64,000 nt of DNA. Source: Escherichia phage PHB12. The position numbers and the translations under genes were made by a program. Numbering within the stretch: the first letter of the stretch is position 1; the number at the start of each line of letters is the position of its first letter. Of the stretch, positions 9,927-27,635 are shown piece after piece. The DNA is taken from the sequence record MK524178.1. One strand, 5' to 3'. The notes beneath the pieces were generated by a model. The model did no database searches. It was not told the DNA's origin and saw nothing but the letters and a program-made list of their open reading frames with translations.

Positions 9927-10145
9927 TTATTTGCGACGAGATTTTTTGGTAAGAGGTTGAAAGAACACTGCTTTACCTGCAGGAGTCAAAGTAACTCGTA
10001 ATGCATTACCGATTCCCAAGGATGCTTTAACAAGACCTTTAGATTTCAGTTCACCGAATGCTTGACGTTGGTCTGCATCACGAGTGTTAACCATAAGACC
10101 TTTATCACCAGCTTCACGAATCATTTCTAACATTTTGGTTTTCAT
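9927..10145 (-). CDS. small winged-helix-like protein (about 72 aa from the internal ATG)
   Basis: Internal ATG preceded by SD GAGGAG; helix-turn-helix-like MLEMIREAGDKGLMVNTRDADQRQAFGELKSKGLV. Confidence 0.5.
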   Translation of the reverse strand: MKTKMLEMIREAGDKGLMVNTRDADQRQAFGELKSKGLVKASLGIGNALRVTLTPAGKAVFFQPLTKKSRRK

Positions 10146-10230
10146 TTTGTTCTCCTCTTGTTTTGATAGGTCTATAATAACATATCCTAAAAGCATGTAC
10201 ACCACTTTTTAAAAATATTTTGACCCCCTA

Positions 10231-10248
10231 AAGGGCCCGAAGGCCCTT
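10231..10248 (-). terminator. GC-rich hairpin just downstream of the nucleotidyltransferase gene
   Basis: AAGGGCC-cgaa-GGCCCTT perfect 7-bp stem with tetraloop, followed by a U-containing tract on the minus transcript. Confidence 0.5.
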
Positions 10249-10249
10249 A

Positions 10250-11239
10250 TCATTTATAGTACGAATTGTGGTTTTCTAAGTAGACTTGCTCAAGGAAATC
10301 ATCCCAGAAACTCATATCTACTTTTTGTTGCATACCGTTCTTGGCAGCTTGTTCTGATGCTTGTTCAACTTTGTCAACGATATCTTCTAGGAATTCTTGT
10401 ACAGTTTTAAACGTATGTTTACCAAGCTTAACATCTAGAATAAATGGAGCATCCCGAAGTGGGTAAACCAGGTCGCCGGTTTTATAAATTTCTAATAGTT
10501 GAAGTCCACCACGACATGCATGACTCAATGCTTTCCAGTCAATACCTTCGTTAGCTTCTGCCTTACGAGCACGTTCGCCATAGTTCTCTTCCAGTTTAAC
10601 CAGGATGGCATTGAACTCTTTATTGGTTAATGTGTCTTGGAATTTACGGTCTAACAGATTATAGAACGTTTGCTTACCTGTTTTCTCGTTTTCGGTTTCA
10701 ACCCACGAAGCAAATTCACCTACGGGCAGAACATTCTTCATATGTGATAAACGAATTACTGCACCATTATCAAAGTATTGTCCCCATTCGTTAGAACGTT
10801 TAAGGGCTTGTCGAAGAACAGCCAGTCGAGAACCCTTGACACCATATTTAGAAGCTTGCTTACGGACATACCCTAAATAAGATTTCATGTTAGTAGTATA
10901 GAAACGAGACCTGTTGTCTTGAATATACTTCCACACGTCAGGCAAATCAGATTTAACTACTAGACTTTGCGGAGTGTGAAGCATATCTAATGCGACAGTT
11001 TCACCATCCATAGCTAGTTTAAAGAAATATTTGAGACTATACAACTCGTGGTCCACGTCGTCTTTTGTGTTCTTAGAAGATGTGTTATTCGTGTTCTTGC
11101 TCATGTGTTCTTTAACGTTACCAGTCAAGATATCACGAGCATGAGGGACATAAATTTCTTTAAAATCGACGTCAGATTCAGGAGTAGACGTTCCATAAAG
11201 GTGACTACCAAAGTAGCCTTTCATAATTGTTTTCATCAT
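10250..11239 (-). CDS. Pol-beta-superfamily nucleotidyltransferase, 329 aa
   Basis: N-terminal GS-x9-SDVDF motif (YFGSHLYGTSTPESDVDF) typical of minimal nucleotidyltransferases. Confidence 0.65.
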   Translation of the reverse strand: MMKTIMKGYFGSHLYGTSTPESDVDFKEIYVPHARDILTGNVKEHMSKNTNNTSSKNTKDDVDHELYSLKYFFKLAMDGETVALDMLHTPQSLVVKSDLPDVWKYIQDNRSRFYTTNMKSYLGYVRKQASKYGVKGSRLAVLRQALKRSNEWGQYFDNGAVIRLSHMKNVLPVGEFASWVETENEKTGKQTFYNLLDRKFQDTLTNKEFNAILVKLEENYGERARKAEANEGIDWKALSHACRGGLQLLEIYKTGDLVYPLRDAPFILDVKLGKHTFKTVQEFLEDIVDKVEQASEQAAKNGMQQKVDMSFWDDFLEQVYLENHNSYYK

Positions 11240-22471: not shown

Positions 22472-22712
22472 CTCGGTCCCATGATTTGGCCATTAATTCG
22501 GACATAAATTCTTCAATGCGCGTTTCTTTAGATGGACTTTCACTATTAGAGACCGCAAGTTTGTAATCTGCAATAGGACAGAACATATCAAGGTCCATAT
22601 TAAGGTCGTCTTTGATTTTTTCTTCTGACACATCTTTATCGTATGTGTACAGATAACTATCACATGATTCTGATTTAATGTAAATTGCTATACTCATCTC
22701 AAATTCCTGCAT
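22461..22712 (-). CDS. small acidic protein, 83 aa
   Basis: ORF track. Confidence 0.5.
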   Translation of the reverse strand: MQEFEMSIAIYIKSESCDSYLYTYDKDVSEEKIKDDLNMDLDMFCPIADYKLAVSNSESPSKETRIEEFMSELMAKSWDRDDE

Positions 22713-23173
22713 TCGGTAATAAAACGTTCAACTTCATTATTCTTGGCTTTTATCTTGTCTTTATGTTCTTGTAAACTACTTTTAATAAGATTAATAATGA
22801 TGGCGGCGGTACCGCCGCCAATGATGCCACCAACAACGCTTATGATACTAGATGCTAATAAGATAGCAATAATATCAACAAAACCGAAAGAACTCACCTT
22901 AGTACTGAAAAACCATATAGATGGTACAAATATAATCCATCCTGTTATCCATTGGCACTTATTGAAAAACTTTTCAAGCTCAGCTTGAGTTGTTCGTATT
23001 ACTTCATCGATAGGTTGATATCCATTAATGTATCTGTTCACGATAATACCTGCTGGCTGGTCGATTTTAAATTCTTGGCAAATATGTTTCACTAAGTAGG
23101 ATGGACATCCTGTCCAATCTACTGAATAGTATGAAATACCTTCATTGCCATCGTCTATATTATTGTTAATCAT
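22694..23173 (-). CDS. membrane protein with C-terminal RFITECR tail, 159 aa
   Basis: Two hydrophobic segments; tail shared with four other ORFs in this block. Confidence 0.55.
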   Translation of the reverse strand: MINNNIDDGNEGISYYSVDWTGCPSYLVKHICQEFKIDQPAGIIVNRYINGYQPIDEVIRTTQAELEKFFNKCQWITGWIIFVPSIWFFSTKVSSFGFVDIIAILLASSIISVVGGIIGGGTAAIIINLIKSSLQEHKDKIKAKNNEVERFITECRNLR

Positions 23174-23859
23174 TACCAGCCTTCCATAGGGAATTCCAGA
23201 TAAACTTGAGCATTGACACGAATTTCATTGGTAATCTTTTTAACTCGGTCTGTATTACGAGATACACGTCCGAACCAACGCCATCCATTACTAATTGCAC
23301 GAGAACCAGTGTGCCATGTTTGCCAATCAAACTGAAGAAGAGTACGATCTGGAGCTTCCCATTTCTCTAGTTCACCTTTTTCAATTTTTTCGAGGACTTC
23401 TTTGTGCCACTGACGATAGATAAGTTCGCCATCAGGAATCTGACTGAACTCTGCAGTTCCTGTTGCAAAATGAGTAGGACACACGTCAGCGTTAACAAGA
23501 CCAAGAATATGTTCAGACAAATAGCGAGGATTGTCATAATCAGGTTGTCCTGCAGTAATAAAATGTTGTCCTGTTGGAATATCTGGGCGTGGTACGTCAT
23601 CATGGTGATATCCAGGAATAGCAGGGTACCAACCAGGCATCAGCATGTGGACTCGTGAATCAAATACTACATCCGAGTCTTTCCAATCGTCAGGAAGATT
23701 TTGGATAAAGCTACGAGTAATTGGGCCGCCATTATCAAAAGCAAAATTCAAATCGCAGTTAAAGAACATAGGCTCGTTTTTAATCTGGTCGTTTTTAATC
23801 GCATGAGCAAAACCGCCTACTGCACGAGCTTGACTATTAAACACTTTAGAACTATTCAT
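23173..23859 (-). CDS. hypothetical protein, 228 aa (possible Fe/2OG-oxygenase-like, very tentative)
   Basis: ORF track; His/Asp-rich patch GYHHDDVP; no firm family assignment. Confidence 0.5.
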   Translation of the reverse strand: MNSSKVFNSQARAVGGFAHAIKNDQIKNEPMFFNCDLNFAFDNGGPITRSFIQNLPDDWKDSDVVFDSRVHMLMPGWYPAIPGYHHDDVPRPDIPTGQHFITAGQPDYDNPRYLSEHILGLVNADVCPTHFATGTAEFSQIPDGELIYRQWHKEVLEKIEKGELEKWEAPDRTLLQFDWQTWHTGSRAISNGWRWFGRVSRNTDRVKKITNEIRVNAQVYLEFPMEGW

Positions 23860-23860
23860 A

Positions 23861-24166
23861 TTATTTTCCTCGACATTCTTTAATGAAATTTTCTAGATTG
23901 GTAGATTCAATAGCTTTTTTACGAGCTTCTGCGTGTTCTTCTTCGGACAATTTACATTTATAATTGACCCAGACATTATGGTCGAAACTAGTCGTAGCAT
24001 ATAATAACAATGCTCCAACGAATAGCAAAAACGGCGATAAGAATACAAAACCAGGAACACCATCCATATCGTAAGCCTTTTGTAATACTGCAACAGAAAG
24101 GGCTGCGTAAAAAGGTGATGCAAATATTGTTAAAAGACCAATTCGGTTGGTTTCGCCTAATTTCAT
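23861..24166 (-). CDS. two-TM membrane protein with C-terminal ENFIKECR tail, 101 aa
   Basis: Hydrophobic helices LLTIFASPFYAALSVAVL and FVFLSPFLLFVGALLLY. Confidence 0.55.
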   Translation of the reverse strand: MKLGETNRIGLLTIFASPFYAALSVAVLQKAYDMDGVPGFVFLSPFLLFVGALLLYATTSFDHNVWVNYKCKLSEEEHAEARKKAIESTNLENFIKECRGK

Positions 24167-24237: not shown

Positions 24238-25194
24238 TTATTTGAAAGGTTTTACCATATGGAAATTTTGTTTGAAACGTTTGACGTAATCATCATGTCC
24301 TAAGCTTTGGTACATACTTACTACTTTGCTGTAGTTTTCCCAGGCGTATTCACGGAACCAACCGGAGGTGATGCTTGTACAGACTTTTTCCAATGCCATC
24401 ATGAAACTGGCTTCAGGGTTAATTTTAAAGTCATTAGGAATCTGAGAACGTTCTAATGCTAGTACACATGATTCTTCGTATACACCGGCCAACTTGACCA
24501 TTTCTGGTAATGATTCGAACTTCTCGCGTGAGGTCATGACTTCAGAACCATCTTTCATATAAAATGTATACGCTGGACGGTCTGTTAGCGCAATGGCTTC
24601 ATGAATAGTATCATGGTCATATGTATAGATGCCATCTTTAAAGAACGCACTTTTAGAAGTGTCAAGAACTGGGTGAACATAGTTCAAGGTTTCTTTCTGG
24701 CGTTTCAGCATAATTTCAGTAAGTTCATCGTTCAGTGTAACACCTTTACCACGAAGATACTGAATATGGTTCATAGTCTTTAAAAAGAACGGATTATTTT
24801 TCTTGAAACGATGAGACATCTTAATTGCAAGACATATCTCAGGAGTCGCCCAGTAAAACCCGTTCAAACGGTCTTTAGTCAAATTTTTCTTGGCGTATTT
24901 TAAAAGGTCATAAGAAGACGTGAAATCTTCAGGAGTGAGTTCACCGACTAATTCACGGGCATTAGTGATTGCCGGAACAATATATGCTTCAAAATGAGTT
25001 TCGCGTCCATTATGGAAGCATTTGAAAACTTGGACATCAGGGTTATCTTGATGAACATATACACCCATCATTTGATTTTTGAACGCATTCCAAGAACATT
25101 GGTCTGCAATAAAGTCCCAATCACTATTTTTGATAGCGCTAGAATCAATAAGACCGTGATAGTGAAGTGCACGAGAACCAATAACTAACATCAT
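24238..25194 (-). CDS. hypothetical protein, 318 aa (possible nucleotidyltransferase-like N-terminus)
   Basis: N-terminal IGSRAL...SDWDF; spacing is atypical for a Pol-beta motif. Confidence 0.5.
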   Translation of the reverse strand: MMLVIGSRALHYHGLIDSSAIKNSDWDFIADQCSWNAFKNQMMGVYVHQDNPDVQVFKCFHNGRETHFEAYIVPAITNARELVGELTPEDFTSSYDLLKYAKKNLTKDRLNGFYWATPEICLAIKMSHRFKKNNPFFLKTMNHIQYLRGKGVTLNDELTEIMLKRQKETLNYVHPVLDTSKSAFFKDGIYTYDHDTIHEAIALTDRPAYTFYMKDGSEVMTSREKFESLPEMVKLAGVYEESCVLALERSQIPNDFKINPEASFMMALEKVCTSITSGWFREYAWENYSKVVSMYQSLGHDDYVKRFKQNFHMVKPFK

Positions 25195-25222: not shown

Positions 25223-25462
25223 TTAAATTTCACGACATGCGATATCATATTCATCCCAGAGGTCATCGTGTGAAGCCTCTACTAATGGAACGATTGTACC
25301 ATTTATGTCTTCATTATAAGGGCAAATTGTACAGTGCGCATCTTCGAATCGGATGCCTTTGTGTTCAGATTTTTTATAACGCATATCGAATATCTTTGCA
25401 AACTTTTCACGAGTAATGGTTTTAGCAACCACTTTGGTTCCAATACTTTCATAATAAATCAT
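25223..25462 (-). CDS. small Cys/His-containing protein, 79 aa
   Basis: ORF track; HCTICPY motif. Confidence 0.5.
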   Translation of the reverse strand: MIYYESIGTKVVAKTITREKFAKIFDMRYKKSEHKGIRFEDAHCTICPYNEDINGTIVPLVEASHDDLWDEYDIACREI

Positions 25463-25480: not shown

Positions 25481-25521
25481 TGATAGGACTACTATAACAT
25501 AGCCCTATCTTGTTGTAAACT
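25481..25521 (-). promoter_or_regulatory. early promoter with palindrome (PeSL-type cassette)
   Basis: Minus-sense GTTTAC plus near-copy of the TAGGACTACTATAACATAG element. Confidence 0.55.
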
Positions 25522-25524
25522 GTT

Positions 25525-25722
25525 TTAGCAAGAATAACTAGATGATACCCAGCCTTGAACAGTGATACTATTGTGGGATAATGAGATCGCGTCCTGGAGA
25601 TTCAGACCTGCGTTATCTTCAATCCATAACGTAACTTCTTCGCTTTCTTCTGTTGCAATTTGGAACAGGTTTTCCAGAGCAGCTACTGCCGTACGTACAG
25701 CACAATCTAATTCACGAGACAT
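25525..25722 (-). CDS. Cys-tail family member (ends WVSSSYSC), 65 aa
   Basis: C-terminal G-W-V-S-S-S-x-x-C shared with two adjacent paralogs. Confidence 0.6.
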   Translation of the reverse strand: MSRELDCAVRTAVAALENLFQIATEESEEVTLWIEDNAGLNLQDAISLSHNSITVQGWVSSSYSC

Positions 25723-25731
25723 ATGGTTTCC

Positions 25732-26004
25732 TTAGCAAGTGTGAGAAGATGCGATCCAACCACCAGTTTCGAGGCTTAGGTTGTAGTCGTATTGGTAAAC
25801 GTCGGCCCATTCAGCATAGCCGTTTTTTGTACAACGTTCAAGGTCGGCTTTAAGCTGTCCGGGTGAATGATATGTTCCACCCATACCATAAGCTGGATAC
25901 AAGTCGAATGTTGTGTTTTGTTTATCAGCAATTTCTTTGGCAGCCTCAATAGCTGCATAGATTTTTGCTACAGCTTCAGCCAGTTCGGTTTGTTCTTTAG
26001 ACAT
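25732..26004 (-). CDS. Cys-tail family member (ends WIASSHTC), 90 aa
   Basis: Same C-terminal motif; the stop codon is followed directly by the SD of the next gene. Confidence 0.6.
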   Translation of the reverse strand: MSKEQTELAEAVAKIYAAIEAAKEIADKQNTTFDLYPAYGMGGTYHSPGQLKADLERCTKNGYAEWADVYQYDYNLSLETGGWIASSHTC

Positions 26005-26013
26005 AATGATTCC

Positions 26014-26319
26014 TTAGCACAACGCAGAAGACGAAACCCAAGCACCTTCAGTAATAACGTAACCATTACCTTCACGCTTAACATCGCCACCATTATTTTC
26101 AATTTCATCTTTCATCCACTGGGATACGATTTCACCCTTAGGATAATAAGTACGACCGCTACCATAATCACCTACAGAAAATGATACGGCATATTGGTCT
26201 GCGATCTTTGTTGCTTCTTCTTCGATACGTTCAGCTTGGTTCAGAAGTTTATAAATTGCATCTGAAGCGGATTTGGCATCATTAAACTCTGGTACTTTAA
26301 TTTCAATAATCTTACTCAT
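26014..26319 (-). CDS. Cys-tail family member (ends WVSSSALC), 101 aa
   Basis: Same C-terminal motif; N-terminal amphipathic helix. Confidence 0.6.
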   Translation of the reverse strand: MSKIIEIKVPEFNDAKSASDAIYKLLNQAERIEEEATKIADQYAVSFSVGDYGSGRTYYPKGEIVSQWMKDEIENNGGDVKREGNGYVITEGAWVSSSALC

Positions 26320-26675
26320 TTTCTACATTCCTTAATAAAGTTTTCTATTGTTTCATTTTCACGTCTAGCTAGGAGTTCATTATAACTAATCATTTGAGAA
26401 GCGTAAACTTTTTTATTTTTCTTGTTATGGTTTATAAAATCGTAGTAAAAATAGACTACAGTACAAAAGGATGCGATGGATGCAAAGGCTTGGGTATACC
26501 GTAAGTCCTGCCATTGGTCTGTGAATCCACCAGAGTTCCCTATAAATCCTAACACAACGCCGTCAATAAGAAATCCAACTAATCCAAAGGCAAATCCCAT
26601 GCCAATACTCATAATAAAAATTAGAATGTTCTCACCAAGAGAAGGCCATACGGTTAAGAGTTGAGGCTTTTGCAT
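26316..26675 (-). CDS. membrane protein with C-terminal ENFIKECR tail, 119 aa
   Basis: Hydrophobic segments ILIFIMSIGMGFAFGLVGFLIDGVVLGFI and FASIASFCTVVYFYY. Confidence 0.55.
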   Translation of the reverse strand: MQKPQLLTVWPSLGENILIFIMSIGMGFAFGLVGFLIDGVVLGFIGNSGGFTDQWQDLRYTQAFASIASFCTVVYFYYDFINHNKKNKKVYASQMISYNELLARRENETIENFIKECRK

Positions 26676-27079
26676 CTTATTTCCTTAACGAATTCCATAG
26701 CTTCTTCATATTCATACTTTTTAACAGCTTCATCATACTGAGCTTGGGCTTTTGCGCACTGAACTTTCCACTCACGAACTCGAGCTCTGTGATGACGGCC
26801 TTGGTGCCAATATCCTACCCAGTTAATAGGCATTAATAAAAATGGTACAATAAGTGGTGCGACGAACATTAATGAAAATGCTGCATCAGACGATATAACT
26901 TCACTAGAATCTAAAACAGCTCCTATAATCATAAAGATTAAAAATGCTAAAGCTAAAATAGGGCCAAATAGTACTTCGTTTGGGATTAATTTACGTTTGT
27001 ATTCATACGCCCAAGGCTTAATTGGCATGTATAGGGTTGGCTTTGACATATTCTCTACATTCCATAATAAATTGCTCAA
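26654..27079 (-). CDS. membrane protein with C-terminal EFVKEIR tail, 141 aa
   Basis: Two TM segments; likely start at the internal ATG (MSKPTLY). Confidence 0.55.
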   Translation of the reverse strand: MSNLLWNVENMSKPTLYMPIKPWAYEYKRKLIPNEVLFGPILALAFLIFMIIGAVLDSSEVISSDAAFSLMFVAPLIVPFLLMPINWVGYWHQGRHHRARVREWKVQCAKAQAQYDEAVKKYEYEEAMEFVKEIRCKSLNS

Positions 27080-27635
27080 GGATTAAATTGTTAGTGAAAT
27101 TAGGACTAACAACCATAGTTTCATAAAGCGCATCAATAGCACTTAAAGCATCAACTCTTTTAAGCAAAGGCTTGCCTTCATACATAGTTTCAGAATCGAC
27201 GATTAACGTAAAGTAGTATTTTTTATTATCGACTAGAACTTCTGTATCGATATAAAACATATTAGACCTCAGAAGCTTATCTCTAAAACCATAATAATCT
27301 TCAGAGCGTTCGCTGATATATTCCAATTCAGTGTTTAAACAACAAACAGACCACGTAGGAGCAACGAAATCAGTGAATCTAATATCATGGTCTGCAACTA
27401 GTTTAGCAATAGCTCCGATATCATTAATCATGATACCTGGGGCTAATAAAGATTTTCGGTTATTTGCATATTCAGTTGTCTCATAAGAAGCTGACCAGTA
27501 CCATTTACGTCCGGTTGCAACATATCGTAATGAATCGACTAAAGACGTAGGTGGATTTACCTTATCTCGGAACTCTTCGAACATTGAGTCAATATCATTA
27601 TTTTGGTTTCGCATGTTAACTCCTTTATTATCCAA
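27018..27635 (-). CDS. soluble protein carrying an EQFIMECR motif near its C-terminus, 205 aa
   Basis: ORF track; probable start at the internal ATG (MRNQNN). Confidence 0.5.
   Translation of the reverse strand: MDNKGVNMRNQNNDIDSMFEEFRDKVNPPTSLVDSLRYVATGRKWYWSASYETTEYANNRKSLLAPGIMINDIGAIAKLVADHDIRFTDFVAPTWSVCCLNTELEYISERSEDYYGFRDKLLRSNMFYIDTEVLVDNKKYYFTLIVDSETMYEGKPLLKRVDALSAIDALYETMVVSPNFTNNLILEQFIMECREYVKANPIHAN

Follow-up and report, generated by a model that had tools for sequence, protein, structure and literature searches.

A conserved C-terminal tail in tandem early proteins of T4-like phages is linked to the gene for a predicted nucleotidyltransferase

The window analysed here is a 64,000-nt stretch of Escherichia phage PHB12 (MK524178.1). 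Mosigvirus phages such as S143_2, HX01, APCEc01 and RB69 match the region at 98-99% identity, and the window is Mosigvirus (RB69-like). Three short open reading frames lie head to tail on the minus strand: ORF3 (26014..26319; 101 aa), ORF2 (25732..26004; 90 aa) and ORF1 (25525..25722; 65 aa), homologues of RB69ORF139c, RB69ORF137c and RB69ORF136c, respectively. ORF3 and ORF2 are full members of the protein family described below, ORF3 with an N-terminal helix, a YGSGRTYYP core and the C-terminal tail AWVSSSALC, and ORF2 with a YGMGGTYHSP core and the tail GWIASSHTC. ORF1 is a reduced member that has a helix, a C-terminal hairpin and the tail GWVSSSYSC, and lacks the YGxGG core. The tail codons occupy 26017..26040 in ORF3 (W V S S S A L C), 25735..25758 in ORF2 (W I A S S H T C) and 25528..25551 in ORF1 (W V S S S Y S C), all on the minus strand, and in each case a TAA stop codon directly follows the tail cysteine. 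Valine is encoded by GTT in ORF3 and by GTA in ORF1; serine is encoded by TCG/TCT/TCT in ORF3, by TCT/TCT in ORF2 and by TCA/TCT/AGT in ORF1. ORF2 and ORF3 are 29% identical over 73 aa (E=3e-6), while ORF1 aligns with ORF3 over the C-terminal 41 aa (E=1e-3) and has no counterpart of the protein's middle. A sequence-only reading of this DNA had described three adjacent minus-strand ORFs with a shared tail, mixed serine (TCT and AGT) and valine codons within the tails, and tandem diversified paralogs; all three descriptions are borne out by these codons and alignments. No further ORF in the 64-kb window matches the tail or the family HMM. We estimate from residue frequencies, rather than from the output of a tool, that such a C-terminal pattern would arise by chance in about 1e-7 of ORFs, and a chance origin of three side-by-side tails is excluded.

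Each of the three ORFs has a Shine-Dalgarno sequence. For ORF2 and ORF1 this is TAAGGA, positioned 6 nt before the ATG and overlapping the preceding stop codon; for ORF3 it is AAGGA, 9 nt before an ATG that overlaps the stop codon of e.3. The trio is kept as ORFs in at least 136 phage records (coverage of at least 80%). In the annotated relative SA79RD, the counterparts of the trio (RB69ORF136c, 137c and 139c) lie downstream of e.3 and upstream of RB69ORF134c, within the ipII...e...tRNA...ipI stretch. In T4, e.2 abuts e.3 with no insert, and the trio is an insertion between these two genes, in agreement with the earlier proposal that the region is variable relative to T4. Neither a tail ORF nor a DUF7275 gene was found in the 75 kb of T4 that we scanned (1-50 kb and 55-80 kb). 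The "sulfurtransferase" label that appears under this region in phages F27 and JK36 refers to the e.4 homologue rather than to the trio, and the labels "tail completion protein" and "major capsid protein" in RefSeq HX01 have no support from any search and were treated as spurious.

A putative early/middle-type promoter, GTTTAC-N17-TATAAT with a GCTT MotA-like box, lies at 26379..26407 on the minus strand, inside the 3' end of e.3, and would drive the trio; the same site was marked as a middle promoter by the SA79RD annotators. A second putative promoter, of early type (TTTACA-N17-TATAGT; 25491..25519, minus strand), lies just after ORF1 and would drive a 79-aa ORF and a nucleotidyltransferase gene, both described below; it overlaps a hairpin that others have annotated as a terminator. 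The late promoter sequence TATAAATA is absent from the minus strand between 19.7 and 33.0 kb, the nearest copies being at these two positions. Given the promoter inside e.3, the annotation in SA79RD and the absence of TATAAATA between 19.7 and 33.0 kb, the trio looks like an early/middle transcription unit. We conclude that the three ORFs are real, translated early/middle genes and true paralogs.

These signals bear on the earlier suggestion that the proteins are injected, which would mean that the trio is packaged in the phage head and delivered into the host, like the T4 internal proteins IPI, IPII and IPIII. The locus does lie between the ipII and ipI genes. The T4 capsid-targeting sequence ends in L/I-x-E, and the N-termini of ORF2 (MSKEQTELAE|A) and of some ORF3 relatives (MNKIEIAIPE|Y) bear a superficial resemblance to it. 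However, the promoter is of early/middle type and there is no TATAAATA on the coding strand within 5 kb upstream; moreover, N-termini across the family are not conserved and form no capsid-targeting sequence, and the family also occurs in phages that are not T4-like. With an early/middle-type promoter, no late promoter between 19.7 and 33.0 kb, and no capsid-targeting sequence, injection is unsupported, and we regard it as very improbable.

To define the family, a profile built from seven relatives was searched against 1.84 billion cluster representatives, with a threshold of E<=1e-3. The family comprises 173 clusters (50% identity), with nearly all members being 70-120 aa long and aligned to the very last residue. 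A terminus of the form W-x-[SAPTG]-S-[SNG]-x-x-C is present in 137 of the 153 representatives that were fetched (~90%), and in 97 of 98 further family matches; a few family members have one extra residue beyond the cysteine. Within the 137 tails, the tryptophan, the serine at position -4 and the cysteine are invariant, and 134 of the tails also have the serine at -3. Position -5 is occupied by S, A or P, and positions -9/-8 are mostly G-G. Family members are short (median 89 aa) and acidic (median net charge -9), and for 76 of the 137 the tail cysteine is the sole cysteine. The remainder of the protein is far more variable: in an alignment of 140 sequences the mean column identity is 18%, and the elements that are kept are a helix (...EAExIADExG), the YGMGGTYYP core and the tail. 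A 953-aa protein with five weak family matches (P0058) is a helicase with repeated helical domains, and was set aside as a false positive.

Codon usage across the family indicates what is being conserved. Among 104 distinct tail DNA sequences, Ser(-4) is encoded by TCN in 77 and by AGY in 27, Ser(-3) by TCN in 71 and by AGY in 33, and the cysteine by TGC in 68 and by TGT in 36. Since both serine codon classes and both cysteine codons are used, selection acts on the peptide, as the sequence-only reading had argued from the three tails in the window. Bodies of other types have the same tail as well: the 52-70-aa ORF1-type proteins, and proteins of 139-173 aa with extra N-terminal domains. The tail thus behaves as a portable module. 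The family HMM itself matches ORF3 (E=3e-24) and ORF2 (E=4e-23) strongly, and ORF1 with E=3e-4. In PHROGs, ORF3 and ORF2 both fall into phrog_899 (E=1.3e-22 and E=1.9e-18, respectively), and ORF1 into phrog_4882 (E=6.7e-36), neither of which has an assigned function; the ORF1 subfamily recurs in further T4-like phages.

The earlier reading had not recognised the family, and our searches agree with it. None of the 140 aligned members has a Pfam domain, the trio has no match in Pfam, NCBIfam or PADLOC, and our literature search found no paper on RB69ORF136c/137c/139c, the tail family, or DUF7275/DUF7277. The names given to family members in their source records are all "hypothetical protein" bar one, a "seryl-tRNA synthetase" label on a 112-aa member that is evidently spurious. 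The profile searches and structure prediction that had been put forward as a check returned PHROGs and uncharacterised relatives only, with no relative in the PDB. This large phage family is thus unnamed, and it lacks both a Pfam model and a relative of solved structure.

The AlphaFold2 model of ORF3 (pLDDT 88) has a long N-terminal helix and a small sheet. The tail tryptophan lies in the last strand, S-S-x-x forms a short terminal helix, and residues 91-100 have a pLDDT of ~85. A Foldseek search of the PDB with this model found no relative (best E=0.86), a search of BFVD returned family members alone, all uncharacterised, and a comparison of the tail-protein profile with PDB sequences gave spurious helix matches only. 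Likewise, a comparison with the acidic DNA mimics Ocr, Arn and ArdA was negative, there being no PDB match to the ORF3 model with E<0.8.

Because AlphaFold2 places the tail within the fold of a small protein, the tail may be structural rather than a free handle. Specifically, it could serve the small protein itself, as a structural or metal/redox element, with the tryptophan packing in the core, the two serines capping the last helical turn, and the cysteine ligating a metal or forming an inter-subunit disulfide. The good confidence with which the strand and the short terminal helix are predicted fits this idea, as does the near-invariance of the YGxGGxY core in the same proteins, and the 76 of 137 members without another cysteine would fit a single shared ligand. 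Nonetheless, bodies without the YGxGG core, or with other domains, have the same tail, which is hence not tied to one fold; and complete invariance of three polar residues at a fixed C-terminal position, on bodies that are less than 25% identical, would be rare for a cap. A purely structural role would, in addition, leave unexplained the gene linkage that we describe next. We consider such a role to be quite unlikely.

The most informative feature of the locus, which the sequence-only reading missed, is a near-obligate linkage between the tail genes and a downstream nucleotidyltransferase (NTase) gene. In the window, ORF1 stops (25525) 331 nt upstream of the start (25194) of a gene on the same strand (24238..25194, minus strand) that encodes a 318-aa protein, the homologue of RB69ORF134c. 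This protein matches the Pfam families DUF7277 and DUF7275 (E=5e-78 and 1e-27) and is a predicted Pol-beta-fold NTase. The trio and the NTase gene are separated in the window by the putative terminator, the early-type promoter and the 79-aa ORF (25223..25462, minus strand; phrog_3723), the last of which is missing from most distant loci and lies outside the conserved core.

We looked at this linkage from three directions. Starting from the family, seven of seven distant members (from Myxococcus phage Mx1, a 371-kb jumbo contig, a 122-kb contig and four further contigs) have a DUF7277+DUF7275 gene zero to two genes downstream on the same strand. Starting from the NTase, we used the DUF7275 protein to fetch 80 loci from IMG/VR (38-97% identity) and scanned their six-frame ORFs; upstream of the NTase gene these loci contain 176 tail/family ORFs, all of them on the strand of that gene and none on the opposite one, and a further 6 lie downstream. 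Upstream arrays of 1-5 tail ORFs are present within ~2 kb in 71 of the 80 loci, and variant tails (WVQSSC, WDSSTC, WDSSSC and WESSESSEC) are found directly upstream in four of the nine exceptions. The gap between the array and the NTase gene ranges from 2 to 1622 nt (median 435), and is often just 2-22 nt, or the genes overlap. Starting from the motif, we searched all of IMG/VR with the exact DNA pattern for G-x-W-x-S-S-S-x-x-C-stop. This yielded 33 stretches, 31 of which are real tail ORF ends; 29 of the 31 are on contigs that carry the NTase, and for the other two the downstream DNA is too short to decide.

The linkage extends well outside the T4-like phages, to Phapecoctavirus AV125, Otagovirus phiPsa300, Acinetobacter phage AC4, Myxococcus Mx1 and jumbo contigs of 360-370 kb. 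In bacteria and archaea, by contrast, a scan of 185,579 species (one genome per species) found the NTase only five times, always on contigs from metagenome-assembled genomes, and four of those five contigs have tails upstream. At the sensitivity of that scan, the module is essentially phage-only. No fusion of a tail protein to the NTase (a Rosetta-stone protein) was found among 120 NTase homologues. Synteny is evidence of shared function or regulation, not of contact. Among the features of the locus, this linkage gives the strongest pointer to function.

The NTase has more than 2,000 homologues, all unnamed, and is found in 733 phage records. Its only Pfam matches with E<=1 are DUF7275 and DUF7277; there is no sequence match to the PDB, to AbiEii/DUF1814 or to RlaP, and nothing meaningful in NCBIfam or PADLOC. 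An alignment of 45 sequences has invariant residues G6 S7, D25 x D27 and E69, which together make up the hG[GS]...[DE]h[DE]h...h[DE]h signature of Pol-beta-type nucleotidyltransferases (motifs I/II); motifs III/IV could not be assigned from sequence, and many further invariant residues lie in the helical C-terminal domain. The AlphaFold2 model is a confident one (pLDDT 90.9). Its best Foldseek matches in the PDB are all nucleotidyltransferases: NTase-like 5uvd (E=9e-4), followed by MenT1 (8an4) and the MenAT1 complex (8an5), with E=2e-3 to 9e-3 and a probability of 1.0 (for MenT1, TM 0.33 on the query and 0.50 on the target). Further matches include Cid1, CCA-adding enzymes, TM1012, OAS1 and ANT(2''). 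T4 NrdC.11 was considered as the T4 counterpart of this protein and rejected; NrdC.11 is RlaP (it matches PF10127) and has no similarity to the window NTase.

The NTase is 38-75% identical across genera, far more conserved than the bodies of the tail proteins, and this high conservation matches the invariance of the tail. Within the clade of NTases that are linked to tails, two segments are invariant: REKETxxYxHP (165-175) and KVCTSITSGWFRE (270-282, which includes Cys272). Distant DUF7275 homologues from KVP40, Gordonia ClubL, Streptomyces Faust and Vibrio K412 keep the catalytic residues and lack both of these segments, as well as the insert at 45-110, and there are no tail ORFs near the DUF7275 genes of these four phages. 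The correlation between loop and tail involves few lineages and is imperfect, since Roseophage DSS3_VP1 is discordant: it keeps the KVCT..SGWFR loop, yet has no tail ORF within 3 kb. The median pI of the NTase is 6.1; the enzyme is not basic, and simple charge complementarity with the acidic tail proteins is therefore not evident.

Because the linkage to the NTase gene is near-obligate, oriented and often translationally coupled, we take the trio to be the variable component of a module with two parts. We propose that the tail proteins would form the upstream, variable half of this conserved module and the DUF7277-DUF7275 NTase its downstream half, and that the invariant tail would be the element recognised by the NTase. 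Such recognition could take either of two forms. In the first, an invariant serine or the terminal cysteine would be the acceptor of a nucleotidyl or phosphoryl group transferred by the NTase. In the second, the tail, perhaps together with the N-terminal helix, would plug and regulate the NTase active site, much as MenA1 does. In either form, the fast-evolving bodies of the 1-5 paralogs might differ in the host targets or RNA substrates for which they are specific, with one handle common to them all. The contact between tail and NTase, the chemistry of the tail and its biological role are all matters that we infer, and our proposal that the tail is a handle by which the NTase binds or modifies the tail proteins is tentative; we give it slightly less than an even chance.

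An alternative possibility is that the tail proteins are stand-alone, host-directed effectors, such as anti-defence proteins, the other role that the sequence-only reading had suggested, or inhibitors of a conserved host protein, with the tail binding a host target. Linkage to the NTase would then reflect a shared pathway or co-regulation; for example, both partners might counter attacks on tRNA or RNA. The tail proteins are indeed small, acidic, early and tandemly diversified, and they are encoded in a variable region of the genome, all of which would suit effectors. Moreover, genes for an RNA ligase, PNKP or a phosphoesterase adjoin the NTase gene in several unrelated phages, and the frequency with which they do so suggests an RNA-repair or counter-defence neighbourhood; ligase-associated RNA-repair NTases of jumbo phages are a known theme (RlaP; PMC7824862). 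Nevertheless, this reading requires a host target that is invariant across Enterobacteria, Myxococcus, Acinetobacter and Pseudomonas, and the arrangement of the genes (same strand, immediately upstream, often overlapping) is tighter than ordinary pathway clustering. There is also no PADLOC match and no known anti-defence fold among the tail proteins. We think it unlikely that the tail proteins act as host-directed effectors in this way.

If the tail is instead a handle for the NTase, a more specific and more speculative version is that it marks all of these proteins as substrates of a new enzymatic protein modification, carried out by the DUF7277-DUF7275 protein. The enzyme could O-nucleotidylylate or phosphorylate Ser(-4)/Ser(-3); elimination and cysteine attack might then close a lanthionine-like ring at the C-terminus, or the cysteine thiol might form a covalent link. 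Such a system would amount to one enzyme with many tagged clients, in which 1-5 fast-evolving early proteins would be activated or armed through an eight-residue tail. We judge this version unlikely, though it has a real chance of being right.

A two-part phage system of this kind has not previously been described, and the linkage supplies a testable hypothesis for two sets of "hypothetical" early genes together. It spans very different large phages (T4-like, rV5-like, Otagovirus, Mx1 and the 360-370-kb jumbo contigs). Should the tail turn out to be modified, the module would amount to a new system of protein modification; if the tail proteins act as regulators of a MenT-like NTase that acts on RNA ends, it would represent toxin-antitoxin-style control of tRNA or RNA chemistry by a phage, in host takeover or counter-defence. 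Either way, annotators of hundreds of phage genomes can now treat the tail and the NTase as one module.

Several known systems share individual features with this module. T4 IPI, IPII and IPIII are likewise small and diversified, and their genes lie in the same variable region of T-even genomes; unlike them, the trio has no conserved capsid-targeting sequence or late promoter, and its family is acidic. In the DsrC/TusE sulfur carriers, which are small proteins, function rests on a cysteine in a C-terminal arm, and lanthipeptide precursors have serines 3-4 positions before a cysteine. The tail family shares with these a conserved cysteine in the C-terminal region and serines 3-4 positions before it. 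However, there is no DsrC Pfam match, no Pfam domain of a RiPP maturase (LanB/C/M/KC/L, radical SAM and similar) is encoded by the window neighbours or at the seven distant loci, and the partner enzyme of the tail family has a predicted Pol-beta NTase fold.

Closer parallels are found among systems that include an NTase. In the HepT-MntA type VII toxin-antitoxin system, an NTase encoded beside its protein substrate nucleotidylates a conserved residue of that substrate; the minimal NTase MntA modifies its target, a HEPN RNase, on tyrosine. The module in the window differs in having no HEPN domain, and in its gene order and the fold of the partner. Pol-beta RlaP NTases of phages associate with RNA ligases (PMC7824862), and the NTase described here is similarly of a phage Pol-beta type that repeatedly neighbours RNA ligase, PNKP or phosphoesterase genes, but it does not match the Pfam RlaP family (PF10127), and no tail-protein partner has been described for RlaP. 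MenT toxins extend the 3' ends of tRNAs, and MenA1, a helical protein of 68 aa, blocks the MenT1 active site and induces auto-phosphorylation of MenT1 (PMC10435456, PMC11375011). Our module resembles MenAT1 in that the gene for a short, helix-rich protein directly precedes that for an NTase with a predicted Pol-beta fold. The model of the window NTase also matches MenT1/MenAT1 chains (Foldseek E=2e-3, probability 1.0, with a TM of 0.5 on the target), and the enzyme may share the bi-lobed fold of MenT. In contrast to MenAT/AbiE, the window NTase has no DUF1814/AbiEii sequence match, and the tail proteins have no similarity to MenA1; furthermore, they occur as phage-borne early genes, in tandem arrays of 1-5, with an invariant C-terminal W-x-S-S-x-x-C. 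The combination of an invariant terminal tail, tandem arrays and a phage-only distribution has no described counterpart. Among known kinds of system, the nearest is an NTase whose small cognate protein is encoded upstream, as in MenAT1.

Genes for RNA ligase (Rnl1 or Rnl2), PNKP or metallophosphoesterase adjoin the DUF7275 nucleotidyltransferase, the downstream partner of the tail family, in several unrelated phages. The nucleotidyltransferase lies beside such genes or a tRNA cluster at L004/L005 1-2819, L094 2500-4763, L090 2357-3004 and L100 265-1810; among the 80 IMG/VR loci found via this protein, Rnl1 or PNKP is encoded at most 6 kb away in approximately 9-11, and in Gordonia phage ClubL a tRNA cluster is approximately 1.2 kb away. 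This neighbourhood hints that the substrate of the nucleotidyltransferase is an RNA end. Separately, at L008, a 64-kb contig, a gene at 10139-10339, approximately 4 kb downstream of the module, matches Pfam Gad2, a Gabija anti-defence protein that is also a predicted nucleotidyltransferase.

Four loci (L050, L051, L053 and L076) have the nucleotidyltransferase without an upstream tail gene. All four have an ORF ending GTYAWCSSSMEC on the opposite strand, approximately 6 kb downstream (at approximately 12.6-12.9 kb in L050, L051 and L053, and at 12023-12463 in L076), indicating that the tail family is still there, unlinked to the nucleotidyltransferase. In two divergent loci (L083 413-3421 and L086 4362-7367), the nucleotidyltransferase gene is preceded by a tandem run of five family members and followed directly by a sixth. 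Tails in these arrays are loosened (GWKNSSSYC, GGWYSSHC, WEGSAC and GWQPSAGTC), and may be a guide to which tail positions are free to drift.

In the RB69 reference genome, RB69ORF139c (P0002), the homologue of window 26014-26319, is cut to 71 aa, ending QWYEK, and hence lacks the tail; RB69 has a frameshift here, or else its sequence was misread. The RefSeq record of phage HX01 (NC_018855.1) names the homologue of window 25732-26004 "tail completion protein" and a small neighbouring gene "major capsid protein"; none of our searches backed either name.

Five minus-strand proteins near the trio share another C-terminal motif, x-F-[IV]-x-E-[CI]-R, that is unrelated to the W-x-S-S-x-x-C tail. They are encoded at 22694-23224, 23861-24166, 26316-26675 (e.3), 26654-27079 (e.4) and 27018-27635 (e.5); the instances are ERFITECRNLR, ENFIKECRGK, ENFIKECRK, EFVKEIRCKSLNS and EQFIMECREYVK, and several of the proteins have hydrophobic, membrane-like stretches. 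Akin motifs are found in T4 e.3, e.4 and e.5 (EFVIDCRKIK, KFVKESRCKSQS and KFVKECREYVK).
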